The notes below the pieces were generated by a model. The model was not told the DNA's origin, ran no database searches, and was given only the letters and a program-made list of their open reading frames with translations. A stretch of DNA of 64,000 nt from a candidate division FCPU426 bacterium (GTDB lineage Bacteria > Oederibacteriota > PGYV01 > Palsa-1178), in assembly GCA_963840035.1 (NCBI GenBank), contig CAWIXE010000002.1:864001-928000 (forward strand). Reading direction: 5' to 3'. Shown piece by piece: positions 26,153 through 60,914 of the stretch. The translations under genes and the position numbers were made by a program. Within the stretch, counting starts at the first letter, position 1; each line of letters starts with the position of its first letter.

Positions 26153-26587
26153 CTACCTTCCCGACCGCTTCACAATCACCTTCCCGTACATGGACGCAAT
26201 CTCAGTAAGCTTTTTATACTCAGGCCCGCCTTTGTTAAGCGAACAGCCGCCCTTAATTATAACCGTACCTTTCTCCATCAGGAAAGGATATTCCCTGCAG
26301 CTTACAGGCCTGCTGTCATAGATTTGGCATTTGCGCTTTTCAGGGTCAAACTGCCTGCAGAAGCTTTTGCTTTCAATACTGTAAAATCCCTTAGTGCCGG
26401 CAGGCTTTATCCCCAGTTCCTTATAATCTTCAGGTTTTATATTCCCGCCAAATATCGTTATCAGCTCATCGCCGTCCACATGCAAAGAAACATTCAGCAT
26501 ATCGCAGCATGTCTTATCGCATTTTGTCATGCAAAAATGGCCGAAGTATTCCCGTTTCCACTTGGCAAAATCGCGCTCAAATCCCAT
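26153..26587 (-). CDS. YkgJ family cysteine-cluster (Fe-S) protein, paralog 1
   Basis: CxxxCxxxCC ... C ... CxIYxxRPxxCRxYPF. Confidence 0.88.
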   Translation of the reverse strand: MGFERDFAKWKREYFGHFCMTKCDKTCCDMLNVSLHVDGDELITIFGGNIKPEDYKELGIKPAGTKGFYSIESKSFCRQFDPEKRKCQIYDSRPVSCREYPFLMEKGTVIIKGGCSLNKGGPEYKKLTEIASMYGKVIVKRSGR

Positions 26588-27576: not shown

Positions 27577-27884
27577 GTATCCAACCCCGCGCTTTAGTCT
27601 GAATTACTTTTACAGTATGGGATTATAAATTATACAGGGGGAAATGACAATGACTATTTTCGGAATTATAGTCGGATTGGATTCATTGGAAACAAGCACG
27701 AATGCTCTGCGCGCCGGGCGAATATCCTTCGACATACTCAGGATTCATTGCAATAATAATTCCTGAACCTGCCGAAAATTAATGCGCACAGGCCCTTGCG
27801 CCAAGCATCAAAATAACGCCCGGCCTTTACAGCTTGCTGACCAACCGCAACCCGGCACAAAACCTTGAGCGTTTGAGACACCCG

Positions 27885-28781
27885 CTACCACACATTCTCC
27901 CCCGGCTCCGCCTTCAACTCCACCGTCTCTCCGCTCACCGGCATCACAAACCCGACCTTAAAAGCATGCAGCCTCTGCCCCGGCTGTGGATCCTCCGGTC
28001 CAGCCAGCTTTATGTCCAGTTCCAGGTCTCCGTAAATCTTGTCCCCCACCACCGGATGCCCCATATGCTTCATGTGTACCCGTATCTGATGAGTCCGCCC
28101 TGTTTTGAGAATTATTTTAAGCAGGGTTGTGGTTTTGTTTTGGGTTACGGGTTCATAAAGCGTATGCGCGCTCTGGCCCCCTGTTAAAACAACTGTGCGC
28201 ACATTTTCCCCGCGCCGGGTTTCTGAAAGGCGCGCGGTTATTTCCCCGGCCTTTGTAACCCTGCCATGCACCAGGCACAGGTATTCTTTATGAATATCGC
28301 GGCTTTCCATAACCTTTACCAGGGCGGAGGCCGCCGCCTTATTAAGCGCGACTAAAACAATACCGGACGTTTCCCTGTCCAATCGGTTTATGACATGGAT
28401 TGTATTATCAGGATAAAGCGCCTTTACCCCGTTTGCCAGGGTATTGGATTCCCTGTGGGCGGTAGGATGCACCAGCATGCCCGCCTCTTTATTCACGGCG
28501 ATGAAATCTTTATGCGTGTATATGATTTTAAGCGGGATATCGCAAGGTATGACTTCCACAGGGTTCCTGTCGTAGTACATATAGCGCACATCATCAGAGG
28601 CCTTCACGACACGGTGATATTTCTTCTGTACCCGCATGTTAACCCAGACAAACCCCTGGTCTATCATTTCCCGGGCCTGTTGCCTGGTAACGGAAGCGGC
28701 GGTCTTTATAAACATATCCAGCCGCACACCCCTGCCGTCCATGCCCGCGATTAAAAGCCGTGATTGTAAGTTTTTATCCAT
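27885..28781 (-). CDS. rluD: RluA-family pseudouridine synthase with S4 domain (RluD-like)
   Basis: RLD S4 start, NKEAGMLVHP, NRLDRETSG, GRTHQIRVH, GDKIYG, LHA. Confidence 0.88.
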   Translation of the reverse strand: MDKNLQSRLLIAGMDGRGVRLDMFIKTAASVTRQQAREMIDQGFVWVNMRVQKKYHRVVKASDDVRYMYYDRNPVEVIPCDIPLKIIYTHKDFIAVNKEAGMLVHPTAHRESNTLANGVKALYPDNTIHVINRLDRETSGIVLVALNKAAASALVKVMESRDIHKEYLCLVHGRVTKAGEITARLSETRRGENVRTVVLTGGQSAHTLYEPVTQNKTTTLLKIILKTGRTHQIRVHMKHMGHPVVGDKIYGDLELDIKLAGPEDPQPGQRLHAFKVGFVMPVSGETVELKAEPGENVW

Positions 28782-28964: not shown

Positions 28965-29393
28965 TCAGCGCCGTTTAACAGTTGCCTTCCCATACAAAGA
29001 AGCGATTCCAACAAGCTTCTTATACTCCGGCCCGCCCCTTGCAAGACAGCATCCGCTTTTTATCACAAGGGTGTCCTTTTCCACCAGGAAAGGATATTCC
29101 CTGCAGCTTAAAGGCCTGCTCTCATATATAAGGCATTTACGCGTACTGTCGTCGAATTTTTTGCAGATGCATTTGCTTTCTATGCTGTATATCCATTTTG
29201 CGTTGGATGTTTTAATGCCCAGTTCCTTATAATTTTCAGGGTCAATATTATCGCCAAATATCCTTGTCAGTTCCGCATAGTTGACATACAAAGAAACCTT
29301 CCGCGAATCGCAGCAGGTTTTAACGCACTTTGTCATGCAATAGTTTCCGAAATACTCGGTTTTCCAGTTTTCAAAATCCGTTTCAAACCCCAT
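28965..29393 (-). CDS. YkgJ family cysteine-cluster protein, paralog 2
   Basis: Same motifs as, and colinear with, 26153..26587. Confidence 0.88.
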   Translation of the reverse strand: MGFETDFENWKTEYFGNYCMTKCVKTCCDSRKVSLYVNYAELTRIFGDNIDPENYKELGIKTSNAKWIYSIESKCICKKFDDSTRKCLIYESRPLSCREYPFLVEKDTLVIKSGCCLARGGPEYKKLVGIASLYGKATVKRR

Positions 29394-37138: not shown

Positions 37139-37876
37139 CTACGGTTTTCTCAAAATATAAAAAACATAATCATAATACTCTGAGTACTTTTCGTATATAT
37201 CAAACTCATCCTTCGTATCCTGTATCAGCTGTAACGCGTCCCCATTCCTGTATTTCTTCGAAAACTCTTCGAGATTTTTTTTAAGAGGCCCATAAAAATC
37301 CACCCACCCCTGCCTGCCAAGCTGAAAATCCGCAACAACCTCATACCCCTGCCGTACAGCAGCCTCTCTATTCGACCCGGCAGTCCCCATGCCGCCGTAA
37401 GCGTTATTCCAGTAACGCACAAGTTCCGCCGGCAGGTCCGGCTTTATGAATACCGCATCAGAAACCACAAGATATCCCCCGCTCTTCAAATATTTTTTCC
37501 ACTCTTTCAGCCCGTTCTCAAACCCCATTATGTATATAGCCCCTTCGCTCCATATGGCGTCAAACTTAACATCCGGTAAATCCAGAGTATTCATATCCCC
37601 CCTGAGAGTCTTCAGCCGCCCCTTAAAACCGGCCGCGGTGGAGGTTTGATACAGGGTATCAAGAAAACCCTGGAACACATCAAGGGCCGTTATAGAAGCG
37701 CTAGTATTTTTCAAAAGCACCATAGTCTGCGCCCCGGTGCCGCAGCCTATGTCGAGAATCTTGCCGTTTGAGGGGATTTTTATATATGACAGGGCTTTCA
37801 GCGTAGCCGCATCAGTCCCCGGCCCCTGCCTGTTAGTGCCTTTAAAAAGTATCTGTATGTAGTCCATGTAATTCAT
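37139..37876 (-). CDS. Class I SAM-dependent methyltransferase
   Basis: RQGPG, LDIGCGTGAQT, FDAIWSEGAIY..GF. Confidence 0.92.
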   Translation of the reverse strand: MNYMDYIQILFKGTNRQGPGTDAATLKALSYIKIPSNGKILDIGCGTGAQTMVLLKNTSASITALDVFQGFLDTLYQTSTAAGFKGRLKTLRGDMNTLDLPDVKFDAIWSEGAIYIMGFENGLKEWKKYLKSGGYLVVSDAVFIKPDLPAELVRYWNNAYGGMGTAGSNREAAVRQGYEVVADFQLGRQGWVDFYGPLKKNLEEFSKKYRNGDALQLIQDTKDEFDIYEKYSEYYDYVFYILRKP

Positions 37877-40594: not shown

Positions 40595-41192
40595 TCAGAT
40601 TTTAATTCCATACGCAGCCATGAAGTTCGGGTACTTAAGTTATCTCCCTATTTCAGTTTTTTTATATCCTTTTTCGGCGGCAGCGCAGTTTTAAAGAGTT
40701 GCCGCGGCGCTGCTGTCAGTCGCGGCCGGAGTTTTGAACATGGTCCCCGAATAAATCCAAAACTGAAAGAACAGATGCCGGTAAAAATAACTTTTCAATC
40801 TGCCGCCTTCTTATATAATATATACACTATTAATTGTATAAAAAATAGACATGAAACAAAAGTACGGATTTCCACTATTTATGGACATATTTCAGCGGGT
40901 ATATATGTGTTTTCGCGGAAGTTTTGAAAAAGCGCGTATACTGATGACCACGCCTTCACACAGCATGCGTTTTATCAGCCTTTAAAACTCTTATACTAAC
41001 GGCAATGAAAATTGGCGTAAGAACCCGATTCATAAACTAAATACTATTGTATAAAAACCATAATCGTTAGATTCATGATTTCGGTTCTGACACCTTTCAC
41101 ATTTTTAAAGTTTTAACCAAATTTCAACCCGAAAACTCAAATACCCCCTTGAGCGTTTGAGCCTCTTGAACCTTGAGCCAAATCCCCCATAA

Positions 41193-42137
41193 CTACCGTC
41201 CCTCCACCCACCCAAAAACTTCCCTGTCCCAGGTCTTTTCATCGTCCTTCATATACGACAGGTGCCCGGCGTCCGGGAAGACCACCATCTTTTTCTCTCC
41301 TGCCAGGTTCTCATATATCTTTTCCCCCTGGCTGACAGATACCCTCTTGTCTTTTCCGCCCTGTAAAAGAAGCGTAGGTATTCTTATATCCTTTGCGTAC
41401 TGCCATGGGTTGTAGTTAAAAGCATTATATCCTTCTATGACACTGCCCCAGAAGACCAGTATTTCGGCAAAGGGCCATGACGGGGCTTTGAGGAGGTCAA
41501 ATCTGCGCCTGACAGTGTCCAAAAGCCCGGCAAATGGACTCTCTATGATTAGACATGATGGTTTAATCCCATAAGCGCTTATAGCCCGCATAGAAGCCGC
41601 GCTGCCCATGGATACCGCGTATATGATTATATTCTTGTACCCGAGCTCTACAGCTTTATCATAAGCCGCCTTCACATCTACAGCCTCATGATACCCCACC
41701 CCGGTGCTATTTCCCCCGGACCCGCCGCTGCCGTAAAAATCAACCAGCATGACCCCGTATCCGCGTGAAAGAAACTTCACAGCCTCGGGTATGAGCTGTG
41801 TTTTACTTTCAGTGTAGCCGTGAAAAAGAAGCAATATCGTATCCTTCTTACTGCCGTTAGCCAGCCAGCATTCCAAAGGTATGCCTTTAAAACCAGGAAA
41901 ATTTAAGACTTCGTATTTAAAAGAGGGTTTTATGGATTTGGATTCAGGTTTGGGGACTGTGACTCCGGTGAAAAGTGCGGTTGCTTTCTGGGTAAATGAA
42001 AGCTGCTCGGGTTTTAAGGGCTTGGGGCCTGATGAGGTGAAGTGGGTCATTTTGTAGGCGTGCATGAAGGCAATTAGGTTTAGAAGGATAAATAGAGTTA
42101 AAAGGGTTATGAGTATTCGTTTAATAGGTTTTTTCAC
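41193..42137 (-). CDS. Membrane-anchored alpha/beta hydrolase
   Basis: FHGY, AVSMG nucleophile elbow, D.RV, AGH. Start moved to GTG 42137 (GGAG RBS); the ORF track gives 42203. Confidence 0.88.
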   Translation of the reverse strand: MKKPIKRILITLLTLFILLNLIAFMHAYKMTHFTSSGPKPLKPEQLSFTQKATALFTGVTVPKPESKSIKPSFKYEVLNFPGFKGIPLECWLANGSKKDTILLLFHGYTESKTQLIPEAVKFLSRGYGVMLVDFYGSGGSGGNSTGVGYHEAVDVKAAYDKAVELGYKNIIIYAVSMGSAASMRAISAYGIKPSCLIIESPFAGLLDTVRRRFDLLKAPSWPFAEILVFWGSVIEGYNAFNYNPWQYAKDIRIPTLLLQGGKDKRVSVSQGEKIYENLAGEKKMVVFPDAGHLSYMKDDEKTWDREVFGWVEGR

Positions 42138-42310
42138 ACAGTCTCCAATTCTATTTATTTCCAATCTCAACTTTCCAGCGAAGCGCGTTATTACCCCATT
42201 CATCCCGAGCCTGTCGAAGGATATGCGCCCGGCTTGTCAGGTATTAAGTCAAGACCTGACCCCAATAATAATTAATTAATTTAATTTCATCCTTCCTTTT
42301 AATATTTGTG

Positions 42311-43144
42311 TTATTTCAAACCGATCTGCTTCCTTTGCAAAGGTAAAAAATTTTCTTTTGATACTACTTTTTTACCTGTTCTTCGTTCAATGTCTCTTCT
42401 TGTTCTGCCCGCAACAGCTCCGCCGTCGGCCGCATCCTTTTTTAGCGGGTTAAATCCTCTGGAATTTCTGTCCTGCGTAATTTTTGTCGTTGTGGCTTCA
42501 GCAAGCATTGTCAGGATCAATTCCAGGTCAGTCATGTGGTCTCTTAAGTTTTCGCGCTGCAAATTTTTTATCTTTTTATATTCAGCCACAGGCAGTTCAA
42601 ACGTTCCCTTCATTATTTCATTGGTCAGTATTGCGTATTCCCGTTCTGTTTCAACGTCTCTTTGCGCCCATTCATCAGTCAGGCTGTGCCTTACTGCTAT
42701 ACCCCTCATCCGCTTATCCACCCAGGATCTCGGGTACCCTTTCTTTTCGTAAAGTTCTTTCATCCTGGACATTGATAATTCAGGGTCCTCGATTTCATCT
42801 ATTCTTTCTTTCCCGACTTTTGCCAGCCATCTTTTTAATGGTTCAACTTTTTTTGATGGAATAGACTGTATAATCCTGAACATCGTTTCGGTATTTGCGC
42901 AGTCTGTTTCGTAATACTTACCATCGGAGGATTGGACTTTCAGTTGTCCGATTTTTTCGGACAACTCGGCATATCCCTCTGTTTTCAGCTTCTTTTTTAA
43001 GTCATTCCAGTATTTACGGGGTCTCTGGCTGTCTGTCAGCACATAAACCACATCTATGATTGAAAACCACCATTCCCCATTATTCATAATTTTTCTGACG
43101 GTTTTACCGTGAAATAGGTCTAACTTTTTGGTTTCTTTTTTCAA
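42311..43144 (-). CDS. Bro-N domain (phage antirepressor-like) protein
   Basis: WWFSIIDV, YWNDLK, RIIQSIPS.K.EP.K.WLA.VG.ERIDEI.DPE, NLRDHMT.LEL. Confidence 0.88.
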   Translation of the reverse strand: MKKETKKLDLFHGKTVRKIMNNGEWWFSIIDVVYVLTDSQRPRKYWNDLKKKLKTEGYAELSEKIGQLKVQSSDGKYYETDCANTETMFRIIQSIPSKKVEPLKRWLAKVGKERIDEIEDPELSMSRMKELYEKKGYPRSWVDKRMRGIAVRHSLTDEWAQRDVETEREYAILTNEIMKGTFELPVAEYKKIKNLQRENLRDHMTDLELILTMLAEATTTKITQDRNSRGFNPLKKDAADGGAVAGRTRRDIERRTGKKVVSKENFLPLQRKQIGLK

Positions 43145-43211
43145 GTAACACCTCGATCCAATATTCTAGTCAGCCTGGACTGGAGCCGCCAAGTGTGTTT
43201 TAATCTAAATA

Positions 43212-43241
43212 AAGTATACGCTTTGTATACTTGTATGTCAA
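43212..43241 (-). promoter_or_regulatory. Sigma70 promoter with overlapping palindrome
   Basis: TTGACA-17-TATACT; aagtatac-N5-gtatactt. Confidence 0.65.
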
Positions 43242-43357
43242 TAATATTTTGGTTTTGTGATAAATATCAACTATCAACCGGGGACTGGTACTATTTTTTG
43301 CTATAATAAACACGTGAGTACATCACAACACAATTGTTCATTGTTAATTATTAATTG

Positions 43358-43516
43358 TTAATTGCCCCTTTCCGCCTTTCGTATCTTATTCCACCTATCC
43401 CCCACATACGGCCAGTGTTCCCAACCTTGCTCATTATATCTAAAATCCCCATCCCACGCAACGCATGCCCAGTCAAGTTCAAGGCCTTGGACGTGGAATT
43501 CAGTGGCTACGTCTTG
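43358..43516 (-). pseudogene. Internal fragment of a DUF2075 (Schlafen-group-3-like helicase) gene
   Basis: Hand translation QDVATEFHVQGLELDWACVAWDGDFRYNEQGWEHWPYVGDRWNKIRKAERGN*; no start codon. Confidence 0.75.
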
Positions 43517-43585
43517 TCAACTATTAACTCGCCTTGCCAGCCGGAGCAGTACTATCGCGGAGGCTGGAGGTCTGGTACCATTTTT
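43517..43585 (+). repeat. 69-bp element, copy 1
   Basis: 68/69 identical to 45680-45748. Confidence 0.9.
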
Positions 43586-43797
43586 ACTGGTATGAAAGTA
43601 CCTGTCCGGAATATCGGCAATAAATACCTCCATCAATTTTAACAAAGACACCGGAAAACACGTCCCACAATCCCACATATTCTTATAACGCTTATGCTGA
43701 ATTTGTCAAGATTATAGATTGAGGATTCCGGCCCCGAAACATTTATTAGTTTGTCATTTTAGTGCCGATTTAAGAATCGCTCAACCTATGGAATCTT

Positions 43798-44751
43798 GTA
43801 GAGACGGGGCTCGTCCCCGTCTCGCCTTAAACACCGAGACGCCCGCGAGGGGCGTCTCTACAGGTTTGTTTGTGTCGTTGTATGGGCGATTCATGAATCG
43901 CCAATACAAATAAATTTCGTAGAGACGGGGCTCGTCCCCGTCTCGTCTTAAACACCGAGACGCCCACAAGGGGCGTCTCTACAGGTTTGTTTGTGTCGTT
44001 GTATGGGCGATTCATGAATCGCCAATACAAATAAATTTCGTAGAGACGGGGCTCGTCCCCGTCTCGTCTTAAACACCGAGACGCCCACGAGGGGCGTCTC
44101 TACAGGTTTGTTTGTGTCGTTGTATGGGCGATTCATGAATCGCCAATACAAATAAATTTCGTAGAGACGGGGCTCGTCCCCGTCTCGTCTTAAACACCGA
44201 GACGCCCACGAGGGGCGTCTCTACAGGTTTGTTTGTGTCGTTGTATGGGCGATTCATGAATCGCCAATACAAATAAATTTCGTAGAGACGGGGCTCGTCC
44301 CCGTCTCGTCTTAAACACCGAGACGCCCACAAGGGGCGTCTCTACAGGTTTGTTTGTGTCGTTGTATGGGCGATTCATGAATCGCCAATACAAATAAATT
44401 TCGTAGAGACGGGGCTCGTCCCCGTCTCGTCTTAAACACCGAGACGCCCACGAGGGGCGTCTCTACAGGTTTGTTTGTGTCGTTGTATGGGCGATTCATG
44501 AATCGCCAATACAAATAAATTTCGTAGAGACGGGGCTCGTCCCCGTCTCGCCTTAAACACCGAGACGCCCACGAGGGGCGTCTCTACAGGTTTGTTTGTG
44601 TCGTTGTATGGGCGATTCATGAATCGCCAATACAAATAAATTTCGTAGAGACGGGGCTCGTCCCCGTCTCGTCTTAAACACCGAGACGCCCACAAGGGGC
44701 GTCTCTACAGGTTTGTTTGTGTTGTTGTATGGATAATTCACGAATCGCCAA
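43798..44751 (+). repeat. Tandem array of eight 121-bp units, each with three hairpins (BIME-like)
   Basis: Units start at 43798, 43919, 44040, 44161, 44282, 44403, 44524 and 44645 (last truncated). Confidence 0.97.
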
Positions 44752-44885
44752 AACCGGGTACAGCCTGTCCCTTGTTCCTTGCCGCTGTACTGACCAACAC
44801 AAACAGCGTACTTGTCACGTCTCAGGTAAGGACCTGCCCCATTCTTTGGCTAAAATCAACGTGTACAGGTTATAAGATACAGGTA

Positions 44886-45584
44886 TCACATCCTGTCGAG
44901 CTTGACGTCATCTATAAACACGGCTACGTTGGCGCTGTCATCGAGCACTGTCGAAGAGTGGGTAATTGTGATTGAAATGTCGTTTAACGACGAGAGTATC
45001 TGCTGCCTGGTGGAGCCGAGCTCCTCAAAATCCGTAAAGTTGAGGGTAAAAGTCTGCCATGTCCCCGGAGTGGGTGTGAGCACGTATTTCAGCCCGTTTC
45101 CAAGGTTGTCATTAAGCCTGATTTCGTAACTTAAGCTGCCGGTTCCGGCGCTGATAACATCAAATTTTATCCTGAATTTTATGTAGGTCTGATATGAAGC
45201 GTCCAAAAAATCCGTATTGGATGTCATCAGGTACGTGCCTATTACCAGGGTCCCCAGGAAACTGGATGTGCCGTAATGTGCCTGCGCGGTCCCGGTCACA
45301 GCAAGGCAGGCGCTGTTTTCATCAGAAGTTGAAATGGACAGCCCTGTATGAGTACTTCCTGTAGAGCCGGTGACAAACCAGTAGTTAGTTGAGACGGCGG
45401 CAGATACGGAGTTATTCAGGTCGCCGTCGGTAAAATCATCCACATAAACCGGCGGGGGCGTCGGAGTCGGTGAAGGAGTTGGGCCGGAGTCATTTTTTTT
45501 GCATGAGACCGAAAAGAACATCGTAACGACGAATACCACTGCCAGTGCCTGTATCATTTTCTTATTGAACATAAACCCTCCCAT
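44886..45584 (-). CDS. Lipoprotein with CIA30/CBM11-like domain
   Basis: SVSC-KKND lipobox, PT linker, VDDF..WQTFTLNF.DF..FIDDVKL; likely start 45572. Confidence 0.75.
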   Translation of the reverse strand: MGGFMFNKKMIQALAVVFVVTMFFSVSCKKNDSGPTPSPTPTPPPVYVDDFTDGDLNNSVSAAVSTNYWFVTGSTGSTHTGLSISTSDENSACLAVTGTAQAHYGTSSFLGTLVIGTYLMTSNTDFLDASYQTYIKFRIKFDVISAGTGSLSYEIRLNDNLGNGLKYVLTPTPGTWQTFTLNFTDFEELGSTRQQILSSLNDISITITHSSTVLDDSANVAVFIDDVKLDRM

Positions 45585-45679
45585 AGTATTGCGGCCATGC
45601 CGCAGTTGTAATTAATTACTAAAACCCCGATCCAAATTACCGCCCATCAAACCATAGAAGCGCAGTAAAATCAAATTTA

Positions 45680-45748
45680 TCAACTATTAACTCGCCTTGC
45701 CAGACGGAGCAGTACTATCGCGGAGGCTGGAGGTCTGGTACCATTTTT
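45680..45748 (+). repeat. 69-bp element, copy 2
   Basis: Direct repeat of 43517-43585. Confidence 0.9.
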
Positions 45749-45771
45749 TTAATCCCATTATGCCCGTTAGC

Positions 45772-46695
45772 CTAATAACAATTCATAAAATATAAAGCCG
45801 GTGAATATGAAGTTGTGCTAAGTGTCCCCGGTGACGCCGGCATGTTTATATCAGGGTCTGCGGTAACATCCATATATCGCCCTCCGGCTACCGGGTAATG
45901 AGCATATATCGTACTACTTCCCACAAGTCCGATCCAGTAGTCCCCTGCTAAAAGGACAGTGTCAGGAAATGAGTAATTTGCCCATCCCGCAGTTCCGTTC
46001 TGTAACGCGCTTTGCGCGATTAGCGCGCCCGGTTCGCCGCCGCTGTCGCCATATATGCCGGCCCTTAAATAGCCTCCGGAGCTATAACATTTTGCCGCGT
46101 ATGCGTTGACCGTAATCGTTGAAGAAACAGTGTATTTGAAAAAAACTATATATCCGCCGGCCCATGTCGTGGCAGTGTCGGTAAAATCACCCAGCATGTT
46201 GGTACAGCCGGTGGTCGAAACCGGAGTCAGGGTGCAGGTGGCTGTAGCTGTAACGGTAGCTGTTGGCGTGGTTGTCGGGCTCACAATCGGGTTTCCGGAA
46301 CAGTCCAGTCCGGTAGCACTAAGCCCTGAGCACATCAAGTTACCGGAGACGCACATTAAATTACCGGCGTAACGCTGCCCGTCCTGGCAGTCATAACAGA
46401 CACCTCCGGTGTCTGTCAGGTGGTTGTCTGTTACACCGTCGCAGTCATCGTCTATGCCGTTACAGACTTCGGCGGAAGGTTTTGTATTGCAGCTGCAGTT
46501 TCCAAAAGGATAAGTTGACGGGTCGTCATTTATGCATGTAGTTGTGGGCGTGGCCGTGGAACTGGCCCCGGGCGTAATAGTGGCCGTGTATGTCGCCGCA
46601 TTCTGGTTTGTAGGCGAAGATGGCGCTTTACTTGCGCATTGAGATAAAACAACCAGCGCTGAAAATACAAAGATAACAGCCATAATTTTTCTCAT
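45772..46695 (-). CDS. Lipoprotein with Cys-rich MopE-like metal-binding motif, Thr linkers and beta-sandwich
   Basis: LSQC lipobox; AEVCNGIDDDCDG motif. Confidence 0.8.
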   Translation of the reverse strand: MRKIMAVIFVFSALVVLSQCASKAPSSPTNQNAATYTATITPGASSTATPTTTCINDDPSTYPFGNCSCNTKPSAEVCNGIDDDCDGVTDNHLTDTGGVCYDCQDGQRYAGNLMCVSGNLMCSGLSATGLDCSGNPIVSPTTTPTATVTATATCTLTPVSTTGCTNMLGDFTDTATTWAGGYIVFFKYTVSSTITVNAYAAKCYSSGGYLRAGIYGDSGGEPGALIAQSALQNGTAGWANYSFPDTVLLAGDYWIGLVGSSTIYAHYPVAGGRYMDVTADPDINMPASPGTLSTTSYSPALYFMNCY

Positions 46696-46805
46696 GTAAA
46701 CCGCCTCCGATTATTCCGTGTAATTGTAAACTGATTTATTTATTATATATGATTTTCAGGGCGAGTCAACGCCATAAAATTTGACCCCATCACCTCAACT
46801 TTTTA

Positions 46806-47060
46806 TTACTCATGTCTGTCCCGGTTTTTAACGCTCTTGCCGGAGACGGATTCAAGATACATCCGCTCGACCTTGATTCTTGCCCAGTTATTTTTCCGCA
46901 GAAATTTCAGACTCGAGCTGACGCTCGGATTGGAGAAAAAACAGTTAATCTTTACCCGGCGGTTCATTTCTATCCATCCGAATTTTTCCACGAGATAATT
47001 CAGTATCTGCTCAAGGGTGATGCCATGAAGCGGATTATTAACTTGAGAATCGCCGGCCAT
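46806..47060 (-). CDS. VF530 family (DUF2132) DNA-binding protein
   Basis: NPLHGITLE.I...LV...GW..INCF..NPS..SSLKFLRK..WAR.KVE..YL. Confidence 0.92.
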   Translation of the reverse strand: MAGDSQVNNPLHGITLEQILNYLVEKFGWIEMNRRVKINCFFSNPSVSSSLKFLRKNNWARIKVERMYLESVSGKSVKNRDRHE

Positions 47061-47184
47061 TAAAAACCTCCTGCATCAATGCATTGAAAATTTCGCATAT
47101 TATCATACCAAAGAGTATAACATAAAACCGGCCGGTTACACTAAAGCCTTACACCGGCCCTTGACTTAAGACATGAAACGTCCC

Positions 47185-47263
47185 GGTTCAGACCTTGCTT
47201 ATAGCATTCAAACCATATCCCATTAGTTTGACTTTATCAATGCTCTAAGCAAGGCCTGCCCCC
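47185..47263. repeat. Small inverted-repeat element (CAGnCCTTGC..GCATT / AATGC..GCAAGGnCTG)
   Basis: cagaccttgcttatagcatt ... aatgctctaagcaaggcctg. Confidence 0.65.
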
Positions 47264-47517
47264 GATCCATGCTTAACCATATAATAATCGCGCCCCAGCG
47301 CAATAGACGACAATTGTTAATTCTTAATTGTTAATTGCCTTTTTGCCGTTTCTTTGTCAATTCCGCCCTGCTCTTATTGTATATAGTTTAATCATTTAAA
47401 AAGGTTTTTCCAAAACCCCGCCCCACCCCGTGAAACCAACCGTCTCCCCACCATTGCTTTTCCACGGTTATTATATTATATGTTAACTAAGATGACTTCC
47501 AAACAGGAGGTGCGCTC

Positions 47518-48063
47518 ATGATTATTGGATACTTGTTTCCTGCCGCGATTTATACCTTTTTCTACCTCCAGCACTATAACTTCATCAAAGCTCACCCGCA
47601 CGACCAGGCTGCCATCTGGATGAACATCATTTTAGCCGTAGTACTTGTCATTACAGCCATAGTATTCATTTACGCGGCCATAAAAGAAGCGCTTGATGCC
47701 GCGGATATGGAAAAGGCTGAAAAAGAGTGGCAGGTAAGGCGTGAAAAAGAAGCGGCTGAAAGAGATGAAGCGGCGCGAAAGGACAAGAAACTATGGGAAG
47801 AAAATATGAAAAAACTGCGAGAAGAAAGGTCCAGCAAAATCGAGGAAGAAAAAACAGCCTTCTCAGTCAAGGCATACAACGAAAGATACTACGGAGCCCC
47901 CGGCTACCGTGAAAAGATGTGCCCGGAAGAAATCCTGAAAGCATTTAAATCCACAAACGGCCCCATGCTCCCCGAAATCCCCGGAGAGGTCAGGGTGAAG
48001 ACTGCGGAGTATACCAGGATGGTTAGGGAGACTTGTGATAGGTTGGGTGAAAGGTTTAATTGA
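47518..48063 (+). CDS. Hypothetical protein with two TMs and a coiled coil
   Basis: AGGAGG RBS; hydrophobic N-terminus, E/K-rich helix. Confidence 0.75.
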   Translation: MIIGYLFPAAIYTFFYLQHYNFIKAHPHDQAAIWMNIILAVVLVITAIVFIYAAIKEALDAADMEKAEKEWQVRREKEAAERDEAARKDKKLWEENMKKLREERSSKIEEEKTAFSVKAYNERYYGAPGYREKMCPEEILKAFKSTNGPMLPEIPGEVRVKTAEYTRMVRETCDRLGERFN

Positions 48064-48142
48064 AAATCTTAATTAGAGTCATGAATCAGGCTCTGGAACC
48101 TTGATTCACTCCGGTTATTGCTTCCTGGCGTCCATAATTTTA

Positions 48143-51100
48143 TTAAACATTCAAAAGCGCCTTAAATCTATCCCCATAAACAATCGATTCTCTTAATTGT
48201 TTAAATATTTCCGGATTTTGTCTGGCTATTTCCTTGACCGTCTTTTTTTTGTCTAATTTAACCGCCATCTCAAGCAGCCCCATCGCTTCAGACAAATATG
48301 AATCTTTTGATATTTTAGGATTTTTTCGCGCTATAAAGCAAAGAGTCCTGGCCTTTCCGTAAAGCGCGTCAGGATAGTCATGCCTTATTTCTATTGCGGC
48401 TGAATACGCTTTAAGGGCTTCATTATCCCTGTAAAGCTGGCCCAAAAGGAATCCGGACTCCTTAAAAGCCTCCGCATAATTGGGTTTTAAGCGGATGGCC
48501 TCCTCATATTCCTTTAATGCGTCGCCTCTTTTTTCTTTGCCAAATTTCGTAAGTATATAGCCTCTTGTATAGTGTGCAAACGCGTTATTGGCGAGCACAT
48601 CTTTTGCGCCATCTATTACTTCAAGAGCCCTGCCAAAATCGCCTAAATTCGCTAAAATTGCCGCGTGTTCGCATATCGCGTCAGGCATTGCAGGATTCAG
48701 TTCAAGCGCTTTTTTAATAATATCAAGGGCAAGTTCATGTTTTGAATCAGTGGTATATGCCCTGGCAAGCTGGCAATACGACATGATATTTGACGGGTCC
48801 AGGTCTATGGCCTTTTTATAGTCACTTATGGCGTCATTTAAGCGGCCTTTTGTGCGGATCACAGTTTTTGCCCTATTGACGTATAATTCTGCCTCAAAAG
48901 GATACAAATATATCATGGTGTTAAATTCTTTTTCAGCGTCCGCTAATTTGCCGTTACGCGCAAGTGAAATCGCCCGCATGAAGCGCCTGAAGTCAACCTG
49001 ATATCCGAGGCTAACAGCTTTATTCCAGTCGTTTTTCGCCGCCTCTTCATGGCCCGAACCCAGTTCATGGTAAATTTCAGACCTGAATGCGTATAACTCC
49101 GCGAAATCAGGGTTTAACTTGATGGCTTTATCAATTTCACTTATTGCTTCTTTGAGTCTTGAAAGCTTTACCAGCGCAATGCTTTTTAAATGGTAATAGC
49201 TTGGTTTCTTCCCATTTATTAAAATTGCCTTGTCATACTCGGCAACAGCCTTCTCATAATCATTCATTTTAGCGTATACTATTCCTTTATTGGAATAAGC
49301 TCCGTCATATTTTCTTCGTATTACTATCGCCTTATCGAACGCCTGCAGAGCCGTGTCATAATACCCCTGCTGTGAAAGCGCCATACCAAGCCTCAAATAC
49401 GCGTACGCGTTGTTGGAATCATATTCCAGGGCGTTGTTTAATGCTGTAATAGCATCCGGCAGCCGCCTCATTAGGCCCAGGATTATTGCTTTATTTACGT
49501 ACGCATCTGAAAACTCCGGCCGTAAAGCCAGCGCGTTTTCAACCGCGGTGAGCGCTTCAGGAAAATCACCTTTGCGCCCAAGTATATAACAGCGGTTATT
49601 CCAAGCGTCGGCAAATTCCGGATTTAACTCTATTGCTTTTGAGTTTTCTTCTAGGGCTTTTTCTATCTGGTCCGAACGGGCGTAATTATATCCAAGCCCA
49701 TAATGAGCGTATGCGTTATCGGGATTAATTTTCAGGATTAACTCAAATAAGCGCTGTGAACGCTCAAAGTCTATCTGGTGCGAATAATACCGGCTCAGAT
49801 ATTCGAGCCCTTCCTGATCAAGCGATTTTTCCATGGATTGTGCTGTCTTTTCAAACCGGTCGTCCTCAGATAACAGGTCTTCCGGGTATTTTACGATTTT
49901 GATTAAAAATCCCGGGTGAGGTTTTACTTTTCCTTCTGATAAAGGCTCAAGCATGAAGTATCGTTTTTCAAGTTCACACAGGTCTTTTTCCAGGCTTACC
50001 CTGTCAGAGCCGCAGCCAAAAACATTTTCTAAAATATGCTGTATTCGGACAACAGCCTGCGGTATGCCGACGGAATCCAGCAGTTTCATAGCCTGAAGCA
50101 GCCGTTTGCCGTGCGGATCAAGGTTTTCATATTGTGCCGTCATATTTTCGTACTGCAAATACTGAGTTATGTCGCCGGGCAGCGGATAGTTGCGCTCCTG
50201 GGTTTCATCCCATTCTAACCCGACTTTTTTCGATAATTCTTCACGCTGCGAAACGGTCATAGGGACAAGCCTGTATTTTTGCAGATAATCTTCGCAGAAA
50301 CGGACGACTGTATTGCCTGCACTTTCCAGAAGCAGAGAATAATTCGCCCCTTTACGGCAGGTTGCGGCTACAGCATAATTCCCGCCCGTAGCTTCACCAG
50401 TCAATTTGGCAAATGAGATAATATCGTAATTCTCACGCGCCAACTGATCTATATCATCCAGCAGTATTATAACCTTTCTATTCTTTAAAAATGAAAAAGC
50501 ATTTCTGTCCGGCACCGGTTTTTTTGCGGCCGGGGAAATAACCACATAATCCTTTAAACCTATAAGTATATTCAGCATGGCAAGTGTTTTTCCGGCATTA
50601 AATGTATCTACCATCAGCAATCCGCGGCCGCCGCCTTCCCGCAGCTTCTTCCTGAGTGCTTTTTCTGTAAACTTACGGCCTTCGTCCGCTTCCGGATCAT
50701 AATCGCTTTTATCCCATACAAACTCTCTATGTATATAAGATTTTTCAAAAAACGGCCTTGTCCCGTCTTTAAAGTCCTTTTTTTCACCCGATTTTACTTT
50801 TTCAAATCTCAGGTCAGCAAGAGTTAGTTCATTAGTATTTTTGCAAAGCGCAAAAGACTCAATACGGCGCATCGTTTTAAGCCTTAATTTATTTATTATA
50901 AAACCGGATAACCAAATGATAAAATTTAAAGTAATAAAAACCATAATGGACGACATTATTACAGGATGCCTGTTTGCGAATTCAACTATCGCCACAGACG
51001 CGGGGTCCCTGTTAAGAAAACTTATAACGATGCTGATAATTAGCGCAAGTAATGACAAAGAATTAAAAACTATAAACGCTATGGATTTAGACATCAAAGT

Positions 51101-51157
51101 GACAAAATCTTCAATAAACAAGATCAGTTTTTTCATTAACATTGTACCCCACAACAA
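48143..51157 (-). CDS. 2TM + P-loop NTPase-like domain + TPR array
   Basis: Two TMs; DTFNAGKT (atypical Walker A), IILLDDID (Walker B), AATCR; over 12 TPR-like repeats. Confidence 0.8.
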   Translation of the reverse strand: MLWGTMLMKKLILFIEDFVTLMSKSIAFIVFNSLSLLALIISIVISFLNRDPASVAIVEFANRHPVIMSSIMVFITLNFIIWLSGFIINKLRLKTMRRIESFALCKNTNELTLADLRFEKVKSGEKKDFKDGTRPFFEKSYIHREFVWDKSDYDPEADEGRKFTEKALRKKLREGGGRGLLMVDTFNAGKTLAMLNILIGLKDYVVISPAAKKPVPDRNAFSFLKNRKVIILLDDIDQLARENYDIISFAKLTGEATGGNYAVAATCRKGANYSLLLESAGNTVVRFCEDYLQKYRLVPMTVSQREELSKKVGLEWDETQERNYPLPGDITQYLQYENMTAQYENLDPHGKRLLQAMKLLDSVGIPQAVVRIQHILENVFGCGSDRVSLEKDLCELEKRYFMLEPLSEGKVKPHPGFLIKIVKYPEDLLSEDDRFEKTAQSMEKSLDQEGLEYLSRYYSHQIDFERSQRLFELILKINPDNAYAHYGLGYNYARSDQIEKALEENSKAIELNPEFADAWNNRCYILGRKGDFPEALTAVENALALRPEFSDAYVNKAIILGLMRRLPDAITALNNALEYDSNNAYAYLRLGMALSQQGYYDTALQAFDKAIVIRRKYDGAYSNKGIVYAKMNDYEKAVAEYDKAILINGKKPSYYHLKSIALVKLSRLKEAISEIDKAIKLNPDFAELYAFRSEIYHELGSGHEEAAKNDWNKAVSLGYQVDFRRFMRAISLARNGKLADAEKEFNTMIYLYPFEAELYVNRAKTVIRTKGRLNDAISDYKKAIDLDPSNIMSYCQLARAYTTDSKHELALDIIKKALELNPAMPDAICEHAAILANLGDFGRALEVIDGAKDVLANNAFAHYTRGYILTKFGKEKRGDALKEYEEAIRLKPNYAEAFKESGFLLGQLYRDNEALKAYSAAIEIRHDYPDALYGKARTLCFIARKNPKISKDSYLSEAMGLLEMAVKLDKKKTVKEIARQNPEIFKQLRESIVYGDRFKALLNV

Positions 51158-51206
51158 TTTTATATGAATAGATTATATCTTTTATGGCTCCCTATCATAA
51201 GTAATT

Positions 51207-51296
51207 GTACCAGACCCCGAGTTAATAAACAACTTTATTAACATTCAACAGCCCCTTCTATTATCAACTATTAACTCGAGGTCTGGTATCATTTTT
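51207..51296. repeat. Inverted pair of the 'empty' form of the 69-bp element
   Basis: gtaccagaccccgagttaata (51207-51227) versus tattaactcgaggtctggtat (51269-51289). Confidence 0.75.
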
Positions 51297-51330
51297 TGTA
51301 TTTGATTAGCCTTTAAATATTTGAACAGAC

Positions 51331-52806
51331 CTACTGACCCTGCCTCTTCAACCACCCCATAACTTCCCACGTAGCTTGCAAATCCTCTTCATTATACACT
51401 AAAATCGTCTTCATAAGTTCTTCCCGTTTTAAAGAATCCTTCGTCTCCATAGCCTTTATGTACTGCGCCATGGACCAAGACCCTCCATACTCTTCCTGCG
51501 ACCGCTTAAATCCCGCCAACTTCTCTAAGACCTTCAAAGAGTAACTCGGCGCAGCCAAAATCACCGATGTCCTTGCCTCCGGGTACAGGTCGAAAAGATT
51601 GGATTTCACCCTCTCCGCTATGGCTATGTCGTCGCCGTATCTTGATAAGTACAAGTCGAGTTTGGTTTTTTCGTAGCTGGAGTAGTGGACGAAAGGTATG
51701 TCTCCGTATTCGTCCAGTATGGCCTTGCTAAGCCGCAGGAACTCCAGCCACCCCTGTTTATCCCCCTCAGAGCCCATAGGAGCCACCGCAGGCGTGTATG
51801 TGGATGGTTTTGCGCCGTATACCTTCAACCCCCACAGATAGACGGTATCTATCTCATCCAGGTAAGGCGGCATGCCTTCGAGGTCGAACATTACGTAGTT
51901 GTTAAAAAAAGGTATCTTGATAGGCTGAACCCACATATGCTCCCCGCTCTTCAAAGCCCGCGCCTGGTCAAATATCCGATAAGCCCGAACCCCCACTTTC
52001 ACCATCTGCTCCCCGCGCGCCTTTTTTAAAGCCTTCAAACTGGATACATCATAGTTATCCAGCAGTTCATCCACAGTATTTATCCCGACATCCCGAAGAG
52101 CGAAAGCCGTACCCTTATCTACATCAGATAGCACAGCCACATTCATCCCATCCATAGCCGCCTTCCAGCACCCATCCCCAAACCCACACCCATTACACCT
52201 GGTCCACCCCACAGGCATATAAGGCTCCGCACCAAGCGTCTTTATATGTAATATTTTCCCCACCTCCGCCTCAGCGCTCCCCCCGCCATCATAACCAAAC
52301 TCCAGCACTGCCCCAGTCCCGCTAACCACCTGCAACCCCGCAGGCAGAGTGCCTGTGGCTTTCTGAAAAAGATACCCATAAAACTGCAACTGCTTCACCA
52401 CTTCCGTATGATGTTCCACTTCATCCACCTTCCGCGCCATCTTGGCATCGCGGATGATGTAGGAGCTGCCTGAGAGGATGAGAAAATCCGGGTTGCCGAA
52501 TATGGAGTGTTTGATACCGCTGATCGTGATTTCAGCCTGAAAGGCGGGCTGATAGATGATAGAAGTTTTAGAAGCCATAAACTTTTTTGTTTGAGTTATC
52601 TTTTCTTCCATAGTCATAGCTGATAAGTCAACATGCGGGCCTATGGATTTCAGGTGGTCGAGTTCGTGGCGTTTGCCTAGGTCGAAGAGGACTTCCTGGT
52701 ATGGGTCGAGGGGTTTTTCGGGGGTTTGGAGGGAGCGGAGGAAGAGGCGCTTCGCGCACTCTTCGGGGATGTATAGGTCGTAAATGTTGGGTGCCGATAT
52801 ATTCAT
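51331..52806 (-). CDS. TM0106 family RecB-like nuclease (PD-(D/E)xK + RNase H-like domain)
   Basis: GNPDFL..RDAK..QLQFY; C...CxxCxxxxxC; FDLEG, HYSSYE, SYSLK, YNEED. Confidence 0.88.
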   Translation of the reverse strand: MNISAPNIYDLYIPEECAKRLFLRSLQTPEKPLDPYQEVLFDLGKRHELDHLKSIGPHVDLSAMTMEEKITQTKKFMASKTSIIYQPAFQAEITISGIKHSIFGNPDFLILSGSSYIIRDAKMARKVDEVEHHTEVVKQLQFYGYLFQKATGTLPAGLQVVSGTGAVLEFGYDGGGSAEAEVGKILHIKTLGAEPYMPVGWTRCNGCGFGDGCWKAAMDGMNVAVLSDVDKGTAFALRDVGINTVDELLDNYDVSSLKALKKARGEQMVKVGVRAYRIFDQARALKSGEHMWVQPIKIPFFNNYVMFDLEGMPPYLDEIDTVYLWGLKVYGAKPSTYTPAVAPMGSEGDKQGWLEFLRLSKAILDEYGDIPFVHYSSYEKTKLDLYLSRYGDDIAIAERVKSNLFDLYPEARTSVILAAPSYSLKVLEKLAGFKRSQEEYGGSWSMAQYIKAMETKDSLKREELMKTILVYNEEDLQATWEVMGWLKRQGQ

Positions 52807-52849: not shown

Positions 52850-53938
52850 TTATTTGTACTTGATTCTTGGATGTGGTAACCTACCTTTTGTTATTCGTGA
52901 ATAATATTGCGAATAATTTACAAGTTCCAAATCACGAATTAAAGGCACTTTCCCTTGATCTCTCAACATCTTTGCTTTATCGACTTCAAAACAAAAACTA
53001 AGTCCTAAATCAATACTTAGACACTTTTGCTCAATTCCAACACAACATCCGTTTTCAGTTATTACAGAATAACCACCAAGACTTTTCACCCGTTTACTCT
53101 TTTTTTCTATCAATCTAATATATTCTTCTTTAATATGTCCATTGAAATATATTTGGTTGTTAGCATTTAAAAACTGCAAGACGTTAAGTTGATCAACATC
53201 ATTTTGTTCCTTAATAACCACAATATCAGAATTTTTTTTGCCCACATTGTAAACTTTTGAATCATAAAGCATTATTGCTCTTGTCGGCGAAATCGGCAAA
53301 AACATTTGAAGTCCGGGAGTTTGAAATCCGGCATTGCCCGATGGAGAATTGTAGTTCTCAAGAAATTGATTATACCTAACGACCGGATGATCGGAAGTAA
53401 TAAAACATTTAGGCGTTTTATTGACCAATATCTTTAACTTAAGATCAAATATTTGTACCGCCGAAGTAAGCATAAAATTCATGTAATCTTTTGCCGGTTC
53501 ATCTGAACGCAATTCGTAATCATTACAGAACTGTATATATTGCAATTCAGTAAAACCTAGTAGACCTTTTATATATTTCTTGAAATATTCATCGAGCAAT
53601 CTTTCGTGATCGTTTACAGCTTTTAAAGTACGAGTTGTAAGTGTAAAAATATAGCATAGAAAATAACCATATTCTTCCGTATCGAAACTGATAACAGTAT
53701 TATTTTCAAATTGTTCAATAACTTTGCCAGCTTGACTTTCAAGCTTAGCCAACATTTTCTCAACATGCGAATCTTTACCATAAAAATAATCTTCATAAGC
53801 CTGATTATTCAGATCGGCTTCAGCAATAATTTTATTTGTTTTTTTTATATAAGTTCCAATGTGTGCTTTCCCCGCAGTAACAGCAAACATTCTAAGATGG
53901 GATTTATTAACATAATGCTGTTTTTTATTTTTGGGCAT
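52850..53938 (-). CDS. DUF4238 domain protein
   Basis: KQHYV...L..F, FITSDHPV, FLPISP. Confidence 0.85.
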   Translation of the reverse strand: MPKNKKQHYVNKSHLRMFAVTAGKAHIGTYIKKTNKIIAEADLNNQAYEDYFYGKDSHVEKMLAKLESQAGKVIEQFENNTVISFDTEEYGYFLCYIFTLTTRTLKAVNDHERLLDEYFKKYIKGLLGFTELQYIQFCNDYELRSDEPAKDYMNFMLTSAVQIFDLKLKILVNKTPKCFITSDHPVVRYNQFLENYNSPSGNAGFQTPGLQMFLPISPTRAIMLYDSKVYNVGKKNSDIVVIKEQNDVDQLNVLQFLNANNQIYFNGHIKEEYIRLIEKKSKRVKSLGGYSVITENGCCVGIEQKCLSIDLGLSFCFEVDKAKMLRDQGKVPLIRDLELVNYSQYYSRITKGRLPHPRIKYK

Positions 53939-54295
53939 ACTTTATTTTCCTGATAAGTCTATAATCAAACGTTTTTTTGAAGGAAAAATACACAAAACAA
54001 CAGGTATTATAATCAAAATAAAGGATCTGCTTTTCAACATAAATGTATCCTATCTCTTTGATGCATCTTTTGATTTACCTTTTTTCACGTTTTCGTCATC
54101 ATTTCCTTATATGACATGCTTCTGAGCGTCTTTCAATAACTGCACAAATTTGTATCTGAGCTATTCTTCGCCATTGTACAAAGCTACATTTTGTTATCTT
54201 AATCGTTTATTTTTTTAAAATAGAATCATGAATCAGGATCTGACACATTCTATTCTTCTATTCCCTCCTCTAATTTTAAAATTAATAAAAACCAA

Positions 54296-55216
54296 CTATT
54301 TCATAACGAATTTTGATGGGTCTTTTGGATTTTGACATATTTTACTATTTATATTTAGATATCTATTTAATAAACCAATCAATCTAATTAATTCACTATT
54401 TTCAATAGAATCTAGAGCAAAAAGCTTATAAATTTTTGATCCTAGCGTTGTTATTTTGACCAAAGTTGGATTAATGGTATCAGGACTATTAAATGGATTC
54501 CCTTGATAACCACAGACTACACCGTATTGACAAAGTTCAAATAATTCGGCGTATAACGAGACGACTTCGGAATCAATGACAAAATGACCATCCCGCTGAT
54601 AGCTTAATGCTGAAAAAATACCATTGCCTTCTTCAAGTCGATCTATTAATTTGCTTTTAAACAAAGCAATTAAACAAAATTCGCTGAACGTAAATTCATC
54701 AAACATTTTAATAAAACGATAGACTTCGTTTTGATTGGAAATTGACATGTCATTAGAGATATTGATAAACAATTTTTCAAGCAAAGTATACTTTCTGCTG
54801 TCAGTTGCACGCTTAATTCTGTCATAAAAAATATCAATGATACCAATAGCAGCGCTTTGCTCGCTGAAGATAGGGTTTACTTTTTCATTTTTGTTAGACT
54901 TCATTTGTTTTAAAACTTGTTCATTAAAAGCTGAAATTCTTTCTTTTTCTTGTACATTAATCAATTGCTTGAAATAATTCGTTTTCGCCTCAATCATGCA
55001 CTGAATTAAATCATTACCAAAAATAATTACATTTATCGCAGTTTTCATTTTACTTTCCGGCATAAATTCTAATGCATCTTTAAGTCTTTCTACTAAAAGA
55101 TCAATATTTCGTTTTATAACTCCAACTGAAAGCAATTTTTTTAACAATACAACAAACGCATAACACAAAAGAAGTAAAATATAAGTATCTAAATAATTCG
55201 AATTTATCAAACCCAA
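54296..55216 (-). CDS. Hypothetical protein, last gene of the RM operon (weak Abi-alpha/DUF4393-like resemblance)
   Basis: Low GC, 36 bp after res; N-terminal hydrophobic helix; ITTLG near the C-terminus. Confidence 0.6.
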   Translation of the reverse strand: MGLINSNYLDTYILLLLCYAFVVLLKKLLSVGVIKRNIDLLVERLKDALEFMPESKMKTAINVIIFGNDLIQCMIEAKTNYFKQLINVQEKERISAFNEQVLKQMKSNKNEKVNPIFSEQSAAIGIIDIFYDRIKRATDSRKYTLLEKLFINISNDMSISNQNEVYRFIKMFDEFTFSEFCLIALFKSKLIDRLEEGNGIFSALSYQRDGHFVIDSEVVSLYAELFELCQYGVVCGYQGNPFNSPDTINPTLVKITTLGSKIYKLFALDSIENSELIRLIGLLNRYLNINSKICQNPKDPSKFVMK

Positions 55217-55252
55217 ATATCTCCAGTATAAATTTAATATTATTAAGTGTTG

Positions 55253-60904: not shown

Positions 60905-60914
60905 TTTTTCACTC

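Follow-up and report, generated by a model that had tools for sequence, protein, structure and literature searches.

A G-for-C silent-site tail precedes hairpin repeats in a candidate division FCPU426 genome and may reflect control of Rho loading

In Escherichia coli, Rho-dependent transcripts end at protective stem-loops, often repetitive extragenic palindromic (REP) elements, and Rho utilization (rut) sites with an excess of C over G lie downstream of them, as described by Dar and Sorek 2018 (PMC6061677). Avoidance of Rho can also constrain codon use, according to a second study (PMC13323073). Here, we describe a C-versus-G asymmetry on the upstream side of hairpin repeats, in the last codons of the preceding genes. 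The analysis started from a 64,000-nucleotide stretch (hereafter the window; positions 864001-928000 of contig C2) of a candidate division FCPU426 genome (G000), and in particular from an alpha/beta hydrolase gene, a TM0106-family nuclease gene and a lagging-strand gene without a Pfam family. A sequence-only reading of this DNA had reported silent sites that are C/A-rich near 5' ends and G/T-rich towards 3' ends in genes beside repeats, and had likened them to deamination of single-stranded DNA, inferring repeated exposure as single strands or mutagenic copying. The G-rich, C-poor silent 3' ends beside repeats stood up to analysis, but neither the C/A-rich 5' ends nor the joint rise of G and T is general.

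The assembly (3.46 Mb in 3 contigs, 98% complete) has 89% of its 2794 called genes on the leading strand. The window lies just beyond a replication terminus and is an accessory region composed chiefly of single minus-strand genes. Genes were called with a purpose-built hexamer model, in which stops are firm and starts less so, and which missed several low-GC genes at window positions 52850-63635. Repeats were defined by a self-BLAST coverage of at least 3, a criterion under which rare families escape detection, among them the hairpin that follows the hydrolase gene. In total, 974 of 1881 intergenic gaps of at least 30 nucleotides (nt) bear repeats with at least 10 self-hits. Among them are GTAG-tagged palindromes and inverted seven-base arrays with many different sequences; most begin at the stop codon, and in kind they resemble REP/RAYT elements, GIY-YIG-linked palindromes and seven-base inverted arrays. 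One seven-base array pattern is present in 230 copies, in 31 and 25 copies in two relatives, and in at most 8 copies elsewhere. The genome encodes eight Y1/RAYT, two short GIY-YIG and seven four-helix-bundle proteins above cut-off, enzymes linked to such repeats. A RAYT gene (C3:277991-279082) carries inverted D10 tags on both sides, which suggests that this gene and the D10 elements clustered in the window (14 of 34 tags fall in C2 900-950 kb) belong together as enzyme and cognate repeats. For the comparisons below, 859 genes with an intergenic repeat within 40 nt of the stop codon were set against 624 repeat-free gene ends and 802 operon junctions.

The G-for-C tail before hairpin repeats is real and general. 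The near-minus-far shift in G-C skew at fourfold-degenerate sites, taken over the last 15 codons, is +0.52 (interval 0.48 to 0.56) in the repeat-adjacent genes, compared with +0.14 (0.07 to 0.19) at repeat-free ends, the control that the sequence-only reading had proposed, and +0.05 (-0.01 to 0.09) at operon junctions. In the repeat-adjacent genes the skew falls from 0.57 in the last 10 codons to 0.35, 0.16 and 0.08 in the three preceding blocks of ten and to 0.00 at 40-60 codons. Measured from the repeat edge it is 0.61 at 0-5 nt, 0.38 at 50-80 nt and 0.06 at 80-150 nt, and the effect is weaker where the repeat sits farther from the stop. G exceeds C in the last 20 codons of 629 of the 859 genes (the reverse in 111), while the same counts for the 802 operon junctions are 374 and 266. 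All ten unrelated repeat families tested show the tail (+0.50 to +0.89 over the final 10 codons). It is strongest in short same-direction gaps (+0.59, n = 312) and convergent pairs (+0.60, n = 132) and weaker in long gaps (+0.40, n = 195). The effect is also found in all eight fourfold codon families and so is not explained by amino-acid content. A general terminator effect was rejected, as repeat-free ends with a predicted intrinsic terminator reach just +0.26 in the last 10 codons and one relative (G012) is flat. An assembly artefact was likewise rejected, because reading frames are intact and the effect recurs in a second genome and in the K-12 reference.

Regarding base composition, fourfold C falls into the tail from 0.32 to 0.12 and G rises from 0.32 to 0.46; T moves just from 0.17 to 0.21 and A stays at 0.20-0.21, so that G and T do not rise together as had been claimed. 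Twofold pyrimidine sites shift toward T (0.43 to 0.62), and twofold purine sites shift little (0.50 to 0.53), whereas control ends fall.

The polarity of the tail is set by gene direction. On the strand pointing into the repeat, 3' ends shift by +0.50 when leading (n = 755) and +0.61 when lagging (n = 104), whereas 5' ends are nearly flat (+0.05, 0.00 to 0.09, n = 469 leading; +0.07, -0.07 to 0.19, n = 42 lagging). This four-way test contradicts replication polarity as the cause; neither fork direction nor motif orientation, which was checked separately, sets the polarity. After GC-rich REP types there is a weak 5' mirror (about -0.1 to -0.2), and after AT-rich arrays there is none. The C/A-rich 5' ends of the genes first described are thus exceptions, and a mirror specific to the D10 family was rejected because other D10 copies show none. 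As a separate observation, fourfold sites lying 60-180 nt past a repeat are enriched in T and depleted in A in sense orientation (T-A skew about +0.2), to a greater degree than those after repeat-free gaps.

The same tail is found in other genomes. In G002, a genome of another genus (1.72 of 3.4 Mb sampled, with repeat detection covering half of the genome), tail skews are +0.44, +0.32 and +0.15, against +0.07 in gene bodies (n = 208 genes); its repeat-free ends, too, rise to +0.33 over the final 10 codons. Skew at orthologous sites mostly tracks the genome that bears the repeat, in agreement with the link to repeats originally proposed. Where a repeat is present only in G000 and the junction is a tight operon junction in G002, the same 230 sites hold 105 G and 30 C in G000 and 77 G and 56 C in G002; in the reciprocal class (105 sites) the counts are 27 G and 26 C in G000 and 49 G and 17 C in G002. 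The 687 orthologue pairs have a fourfold identity of about 0.40 and are too saturated to polarise changes. A metagenome scan for close strains gave a top match of 90% amino-acid identity on an 8.5-kb contig and 79 others at 57-70%, and the 77 within-genome paralogue pairs are all identical insertion sequence copies or overly diverged. In E. coli K-12 (800 kb, windows picked mostly for REP content), skew is +0.60 over the final 10 codons of genes that precede a repeat and +0.20 in gene bodies (n = 91 genes), a shift of +0.43 (0.32 to 0.54) compared with +0.14 at repeat-free ends. This halo is +0.52 in convergent pairs (n = 58), while in tandem pairs it is +0.18 with an interval spanning 0 (n = 33). 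The tail is about 90 nt long in G000 and G002 and about 30 nt in E. coli. Three repeat-poor relatives (G012, G003 and G010), sampled over 120-200 kb each, show little or no 3' gradient.

Deamination of single-stranded DNA predicts that T and G rise as C and A fall, that C>T changes are raised and that non-coding DNA is hit at least as hard, and the data depart from all three predictions. In G000, G002 and E. coli alike, fourfold C goes down and G goes up with A and T nearly flat. A two-parameter model of C loss and G gain fits with a root-mean-square error of 0.012, 0.008 and 0.000 in the three genomes (overall range 0.000-0.013), compared with 0.03-0.06 for a two-parameter model in which C>T and A>G are raised, which overshoots T and undershoots A; the deamination equilibria were run under three assumed spectra. 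The better fit does not separate selection from a C>G transversion bias. C makes up 0.15-0.18 of the spacers before repeats, which may be young or contain missed repeat units, and 0.18 of repeat-free gaps, while the coding tail drops to 0.13; a coding tail near the spacer in C content is expected if low RNA C content is the target. Rates were compared across up to ten Escherichia genomes after three near-identical to K-12 were dropped, with data for 20 of 23 REP ends. Of the C sites, 13 of 32 near REPs and 861 of 1877 far from them have a derived T, a small sample showing no excess, where the deamination fit required about 2.5-fold more C>T. Fourfold differences to K-12 amount to 0.151 near REPs, 0.199 far from them and 0.147 at control ends. 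All 16 sequence contexts shift alike (-0.24 to -1.46), and no single context such as TC stands out, as an enzymatic, APOBEC-like deamination would predict. Of the original interpretation, then, the tie to repeats remains, whereas deamination of single-stranded DNA is not supported as the main cause, given the flat A and T, the spacers, the lack of excess C>T in Escherichia and the one-sidedness of the effect.

We favor, with a probability of roughly 0.5, the reading that the tails reflect selection on RNA to control where Rho loads ahead of protective hairpins. The proposed link between base composition and Rho runs as follows. The hairpin would pause RNA polymerase and shield the mRNA 3' end, and once the ribosome has left, the gene tail would be the sole unstructured RNA near the paused polymerase. 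A C-poor, G-rich tail could keep Rho from ending transcription before the hairpin or the next gene of the operon is made; in same-direction gaps, which dominate in G000, it would deny Rho a loading site ahead of a long untranslated hairpin. Read from the opposite strand, the tail would supply a convergent or antisense transcript with a C>G rut site immediately after the hairpin, the placement described for E. coli REPs, and in a convergent pair this site would be the G-rich tail of the other gene. A C-rich stretch after a hairpin could similarly serve as a rut site for upstream read-through. The enzymes of the repeats would have no direct part. The rho gene (TIGR00767) is above cut-off in all five genomes searched (G000 and four of four relatives), and the asymmetry is chiefly one of C versus G oriented by transcription, as a rut or anti-rut signal requires. 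The footprint of Rho is 60-90 nt, and the tail measures about 90 nt in G000 and G002 and about 30 nt in E. coli. On a plasmid of Gloeothece, one of the cyanobacteria, which are not known to encode Rho, 32 repeat-adjacent ends show the opposite shift (-0.27, -0.46 to -0.06).

Several results weigh against selection through Rho. On plasmids of Nostoc, another cyanobacterium, repeat-free ends shift by +0.38 (0.15 to 0.60, n = 51) and just two repeat ends are available, which makes the cyanobacterial control noisy and suggestive at most; no Rho-less host suited to the comparison emerged from plasmid searches with LeuC or with repeats of the window. In 21 genes with a unique stem of 22-30 bp and no repeat, a halo is not clearly visible. 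There is no preference with respect to the UC and CC dinucleotides bound by E. coli Rho, the C-versus-T shift by preceding base being -0.98 after G, -0.86 after C, -0.77 after T and -0.52 after A. Downstream of G000 repeats the C>G signal is weak (+0.01, compared with +0.10 in repeat-free gaps). Nor is selection clearly visible in the Escherichia sample, which comes from a genus used as a proxy and has few sites: T>C changes near REPs are not reduced (14 of 327, compared with 417 of 12917), and G is conserved there as at control ends.

Another possibility, to which we give appreciably lower odds, keeps the deamination idea and takes its polarity from transcription. Polymerase stalling or an R-loop just upstream of the hairpin would leave the non-template strand single-stranded, and C would be lost from it. 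Transcription-associated C>T mutation of the non-template strand and GC skew at R-loops are known processes, and the smooth decay of skew from the repeat edge, the shift of twofold pyrimidine sites to T, the rise of the effect with a proxy of codon optimality (+0.42 to +0.59) and an interior tract of the TM0106 gene that is both G- and T-rich are in its favor. Repair genes also bear on it. The uracil-DNA glycosylase (UDG) superfamily (PF03167) has no match in G000, in a search that found it in 13 of 14 controls, and none in 21 of the 23 further members of its order, the other two being fragmented assemblies, while seven of seven genomes of other orders are positive; the order may thus lack known uracil excision. 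Endonuclease V is without a match in all 31 genomes, and NucS has no match in G000, which encodes one HhH-GPD protein, nearest to endonuclease III. Homologues of E. coli Mfd, MutS and DinB are present. The RNase HI frame (C2:116337-116760), adjoining a RAYT gene, is broken by a frameshift in the assembly, possibly an assembly error; the 12 relatives searched have full frames. The lack of a UDG match keeps deamination plausible, but it is shared by the repeat-poor relatives G012, G003 and G010, which have little or no gradient, and E. coli, which possesses Ung, has a halo of similar height. G002 has its halo together with an intact RNase H frame. Fourfold T and A fail to move as deamination predicts, spacers are not C-depleted, and Escherichia shows no excess of C>T. 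In a far-reaching version that we entertain with slightly more reserve, every transcribed hairpin repeat would be a one-way mutator of the preceding tail through polymerase queues or R-loops, recorded because the order apparently lost UDG; mobile palindromes would then have rewritten about one third of gene ends, and the TM0106 gene would show a longer-range form of this in RAYT islands.

The remaining alternatives place the cause elsewhere. Reverse causation, in which repeats insert or persist at ends that are already G-rich, such as Rho-type ends needing a protective hairpin, is in our view improbable. It would account for the smaller shift at repeat-free ends and for G002 orthologues without a detected repeat (gap of at least 30 nt), which are still G-rich (167 G and 83 C of 357 sites, +0.34, compared with +0.17 where neither genome has a repeat), although some of these may hide missed copies, half of the genome having been used for detection; the orthologous operon-junction sites, which follow the repeat in both directions, argue against it. 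It is slightly less probable again that the repeats' own enzymes (RAYT, small GIY-YIG or four-helix-bundle-associated) nick or copy the flank, perhaps only in island genes such as TM0106. The genome encodes such enzymes, the window holds its most variable 25-kb bin, and genes within 1.5 kb of RAYT-type tags have extreme interior windows in 17 of 396 cases, compared with 210 of 27128 (window under study excluded). However, once gene means are removed a small excess is left near these tags (standard deviation 1.07 against 0.98), so that the signal may owe much to the codon bias that acquired genes brought from a donor; moreover, the ten repeat families behave alike, polarity follows the gene and not motif orientation, and the other D10 copies lack a 5' mirror. 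Very improbable, finally, is a model based on E. coli RRS sites, where hairpins provoke adjacent single-stranded gaps (PMC10287960); here, gaps left after replication would flank hairpins in the template of the lagging strand. That model predicts halos just at leading 3' and lagging 5' ends, the opposite of the strong lagging 3' and flat lagging 5' ends found here, and RRS gaps span 1.4-2.5 kb, not 90 nt.

The genes of the window from which the observation came (Table 1) are extreme cases. The five 60-bp base counts originally given are all exact and the quoted codon runs are present in the sequence; because the hydrolase and TM0106 genes lie on the minus strand, windows that are C-rich on the plus strand are G-rich in sense, and the reverse. 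The RluD-like and methyltransferase genes named there likewise have G-rich 3' ends; the open reading frame at the putative DUF2075 scrap (plus strand, 43355-43642, the sole one scanned there) has no NCBIfam match. The TM0106 gene, said to flip more than once, does so with the widest within-gene skew range of 2646 genes, matched by none of 2000 synonymous shuffles. It is C-rich in codons 0-40 (C14 G2), G/T-rich in codons 120-280 (A5 C8 G46 T22), C-rich again near codons 350-380 and G-rich at its 3' end, and its 30-codon keto score, relative to genome codon usage, is the lowest (-6.3) and third-highest (+5.3) among all genes. A family trait was rejected, since the pattern is absent in two homologues (45% and 40% identity). 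The hydrolase gene has A7 C13 G0 T3 at the fourfold sites of the 40 codons from its called start at 42065. The skew ranges of this gene and of the gene at 47518, both chosen post hoc, are reached by 5 and 8 of 2000 shuffles, respectively. The 25-kb bin that holds these genes is the most variable of the genome (standard deviation 1.69, median 1.08), and with the TM0106 extreme this means that the sequence-only reading had picked out the genome's extreme region. The reading based on Rho does not cover the tracts that lie at the 5' end and in the interior of the TM0106 and hydrolase genes, barring a C-rich stretch after a hairpin; those of TM0106, in which G+T alternates with C+A far from detected repeats, may reflect a different, longer-range process or the history of a donor.

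Table 1. Repeat elements and genes of the window discussed in the text (window coordinates)
Feature	Position	Strand	Remarks
RluD-like pseudouridine synthase gene, G-rich 3' end	27879..27960	-	fourfold A3 C1 G14 T2 from codon 240 onward
Methyltransferase gene, stop abuts GTAG REP	37139..37876	-	G-rich across 3' half
Hairpin elements after hydrolase stop: inverted seven-base array and RAYT-type tag (family D10)	41050..41190	-	RNA fold -34.6 kcal/mol, z -2.46
Alpha/beta hydrolase gene	41193..42203	-	sense 3' end (41191-41250) rich in G; sense 5' part (about 41945-42130) rich in C/A
Two small repeat elements between BRO gene and hydrolase	42190..42270		42150-42290 fold no better than shuffles, z -0.19
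Seven-base repeat arm, C-rich plus-strand scrap (43398-43457, 25 C/5 G), D11 element	43334..43585		
121-bp tandem array, GTAG-tagged REP-like palindromes	43790..44750		
Gene without Pfam family, lagging strand	47518..48063	+	G-rich sense 3' end 47994-48063, runs into D10-type element 48066-48125
Long hairpin (inverted D11-type arms), about 45 nt after TM0106 stop	51200..51290	-	RNA fold -39.5 kcal/mol, z -5.71, 0/200 shuffles
TM0106-family nuclease gene	51331..52806	-	TIGR03491 above cut-off; genome extreme in silent-site skew

Other features of the region and the genome were also observed. The window contains two paralogous CxxCxxCC genes (26153-26587 and 28965-29393, 73% identical), of which the one followed by a repeat has the G-richer tail, based on small counts. 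Directly upstream of the TM0106 gene, positions 52850-63635 form a low-GC island (about 0.30) with a DUF4238 protein, a type III restriction-like helicase, a DNA methylase and a UvrD-PD-(D/E)XK protein. A second RAYT-tag island, with genes of extreme silent-site score (+5.5 and -5.6), is located at C1:220152-229279. Two stretches, C3:1-11300 and C2 near 1676000-1691000, are GC-rich and foreign-looking, possibly contamination or islands, and the former includes an actinobacterial-type RNase H (C3:10575-10988).

The repeats themselves are of known kinds, and the rut signal downstream of such hairpins is already published (PMC6061677). In the literature searched we found no description of a silent-site halo on the coding strand upstream; some of this ground may have been covered by Peters et al. 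2012 and Espeli et al. 2001. The mechanism is unsettled but testable. Should Rho prove to be responsible, the silent positions at the end of a gene would encode termination control at every place where a hairpin repeat has landed, also inside operons, estimates of codon usage and synonymous divergence (dS) at 3' ends would be biased, and the tail would offer a sequence-only marker for Rho-type transcript ends in uncultured bacteria. The presence of the tail before E. coli REPs makes the question of mutation versus selection testable in a laboratory strain.

Compared with the REP/RAYT-type systems, GIY-YIG-linked palindromes and seven-base arrays that they resemble, the repeats of this genome occupy over half of the intergenic gaps, and their effect on the flank is independent of repeat family. 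Transcription-associated C>T mutation and R-loop skew share with the tail a polarity set by transcription and a loss of C from the sense strand, but the gain of T and the raised rate expected from them are absent at fourfold sites and in Escherichia. E. coli RRS sites also involve a hairpin-forming repeat that affects one flank; that effect follows the lagging strand over kilobases (PMC10287960), whereas the one described here follows gene direction over about 90 nt. The Bacilli purine bias attributed to Rho avoidance (PMC13323073) is similar in that selection against Rho targeting would act through synonymous codons of the sense strand. The Bacilli bias extends over whole genes and disfavors C as well as U; in the present case it is local (about 90 nt, and about 30 nt in E. 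coli) and tied to repeats, with T unchanged or raised. The rut sites found beside stem-loops and REPs in E. coli (PMC6061677) share a C-versus-G asymmetry anchored on a hairpin without a U-tract or on a REP, and in convergent pairs the G-rich sense tail mirrors the C-rich site downstream of the hairpin. Unlike at those sites, the main signal in this genome lies upstream, on the sense strand and within coding sequence, and it is equal in same-direction operon junctions and convergent pairs, with a weak C>G signal downstream.

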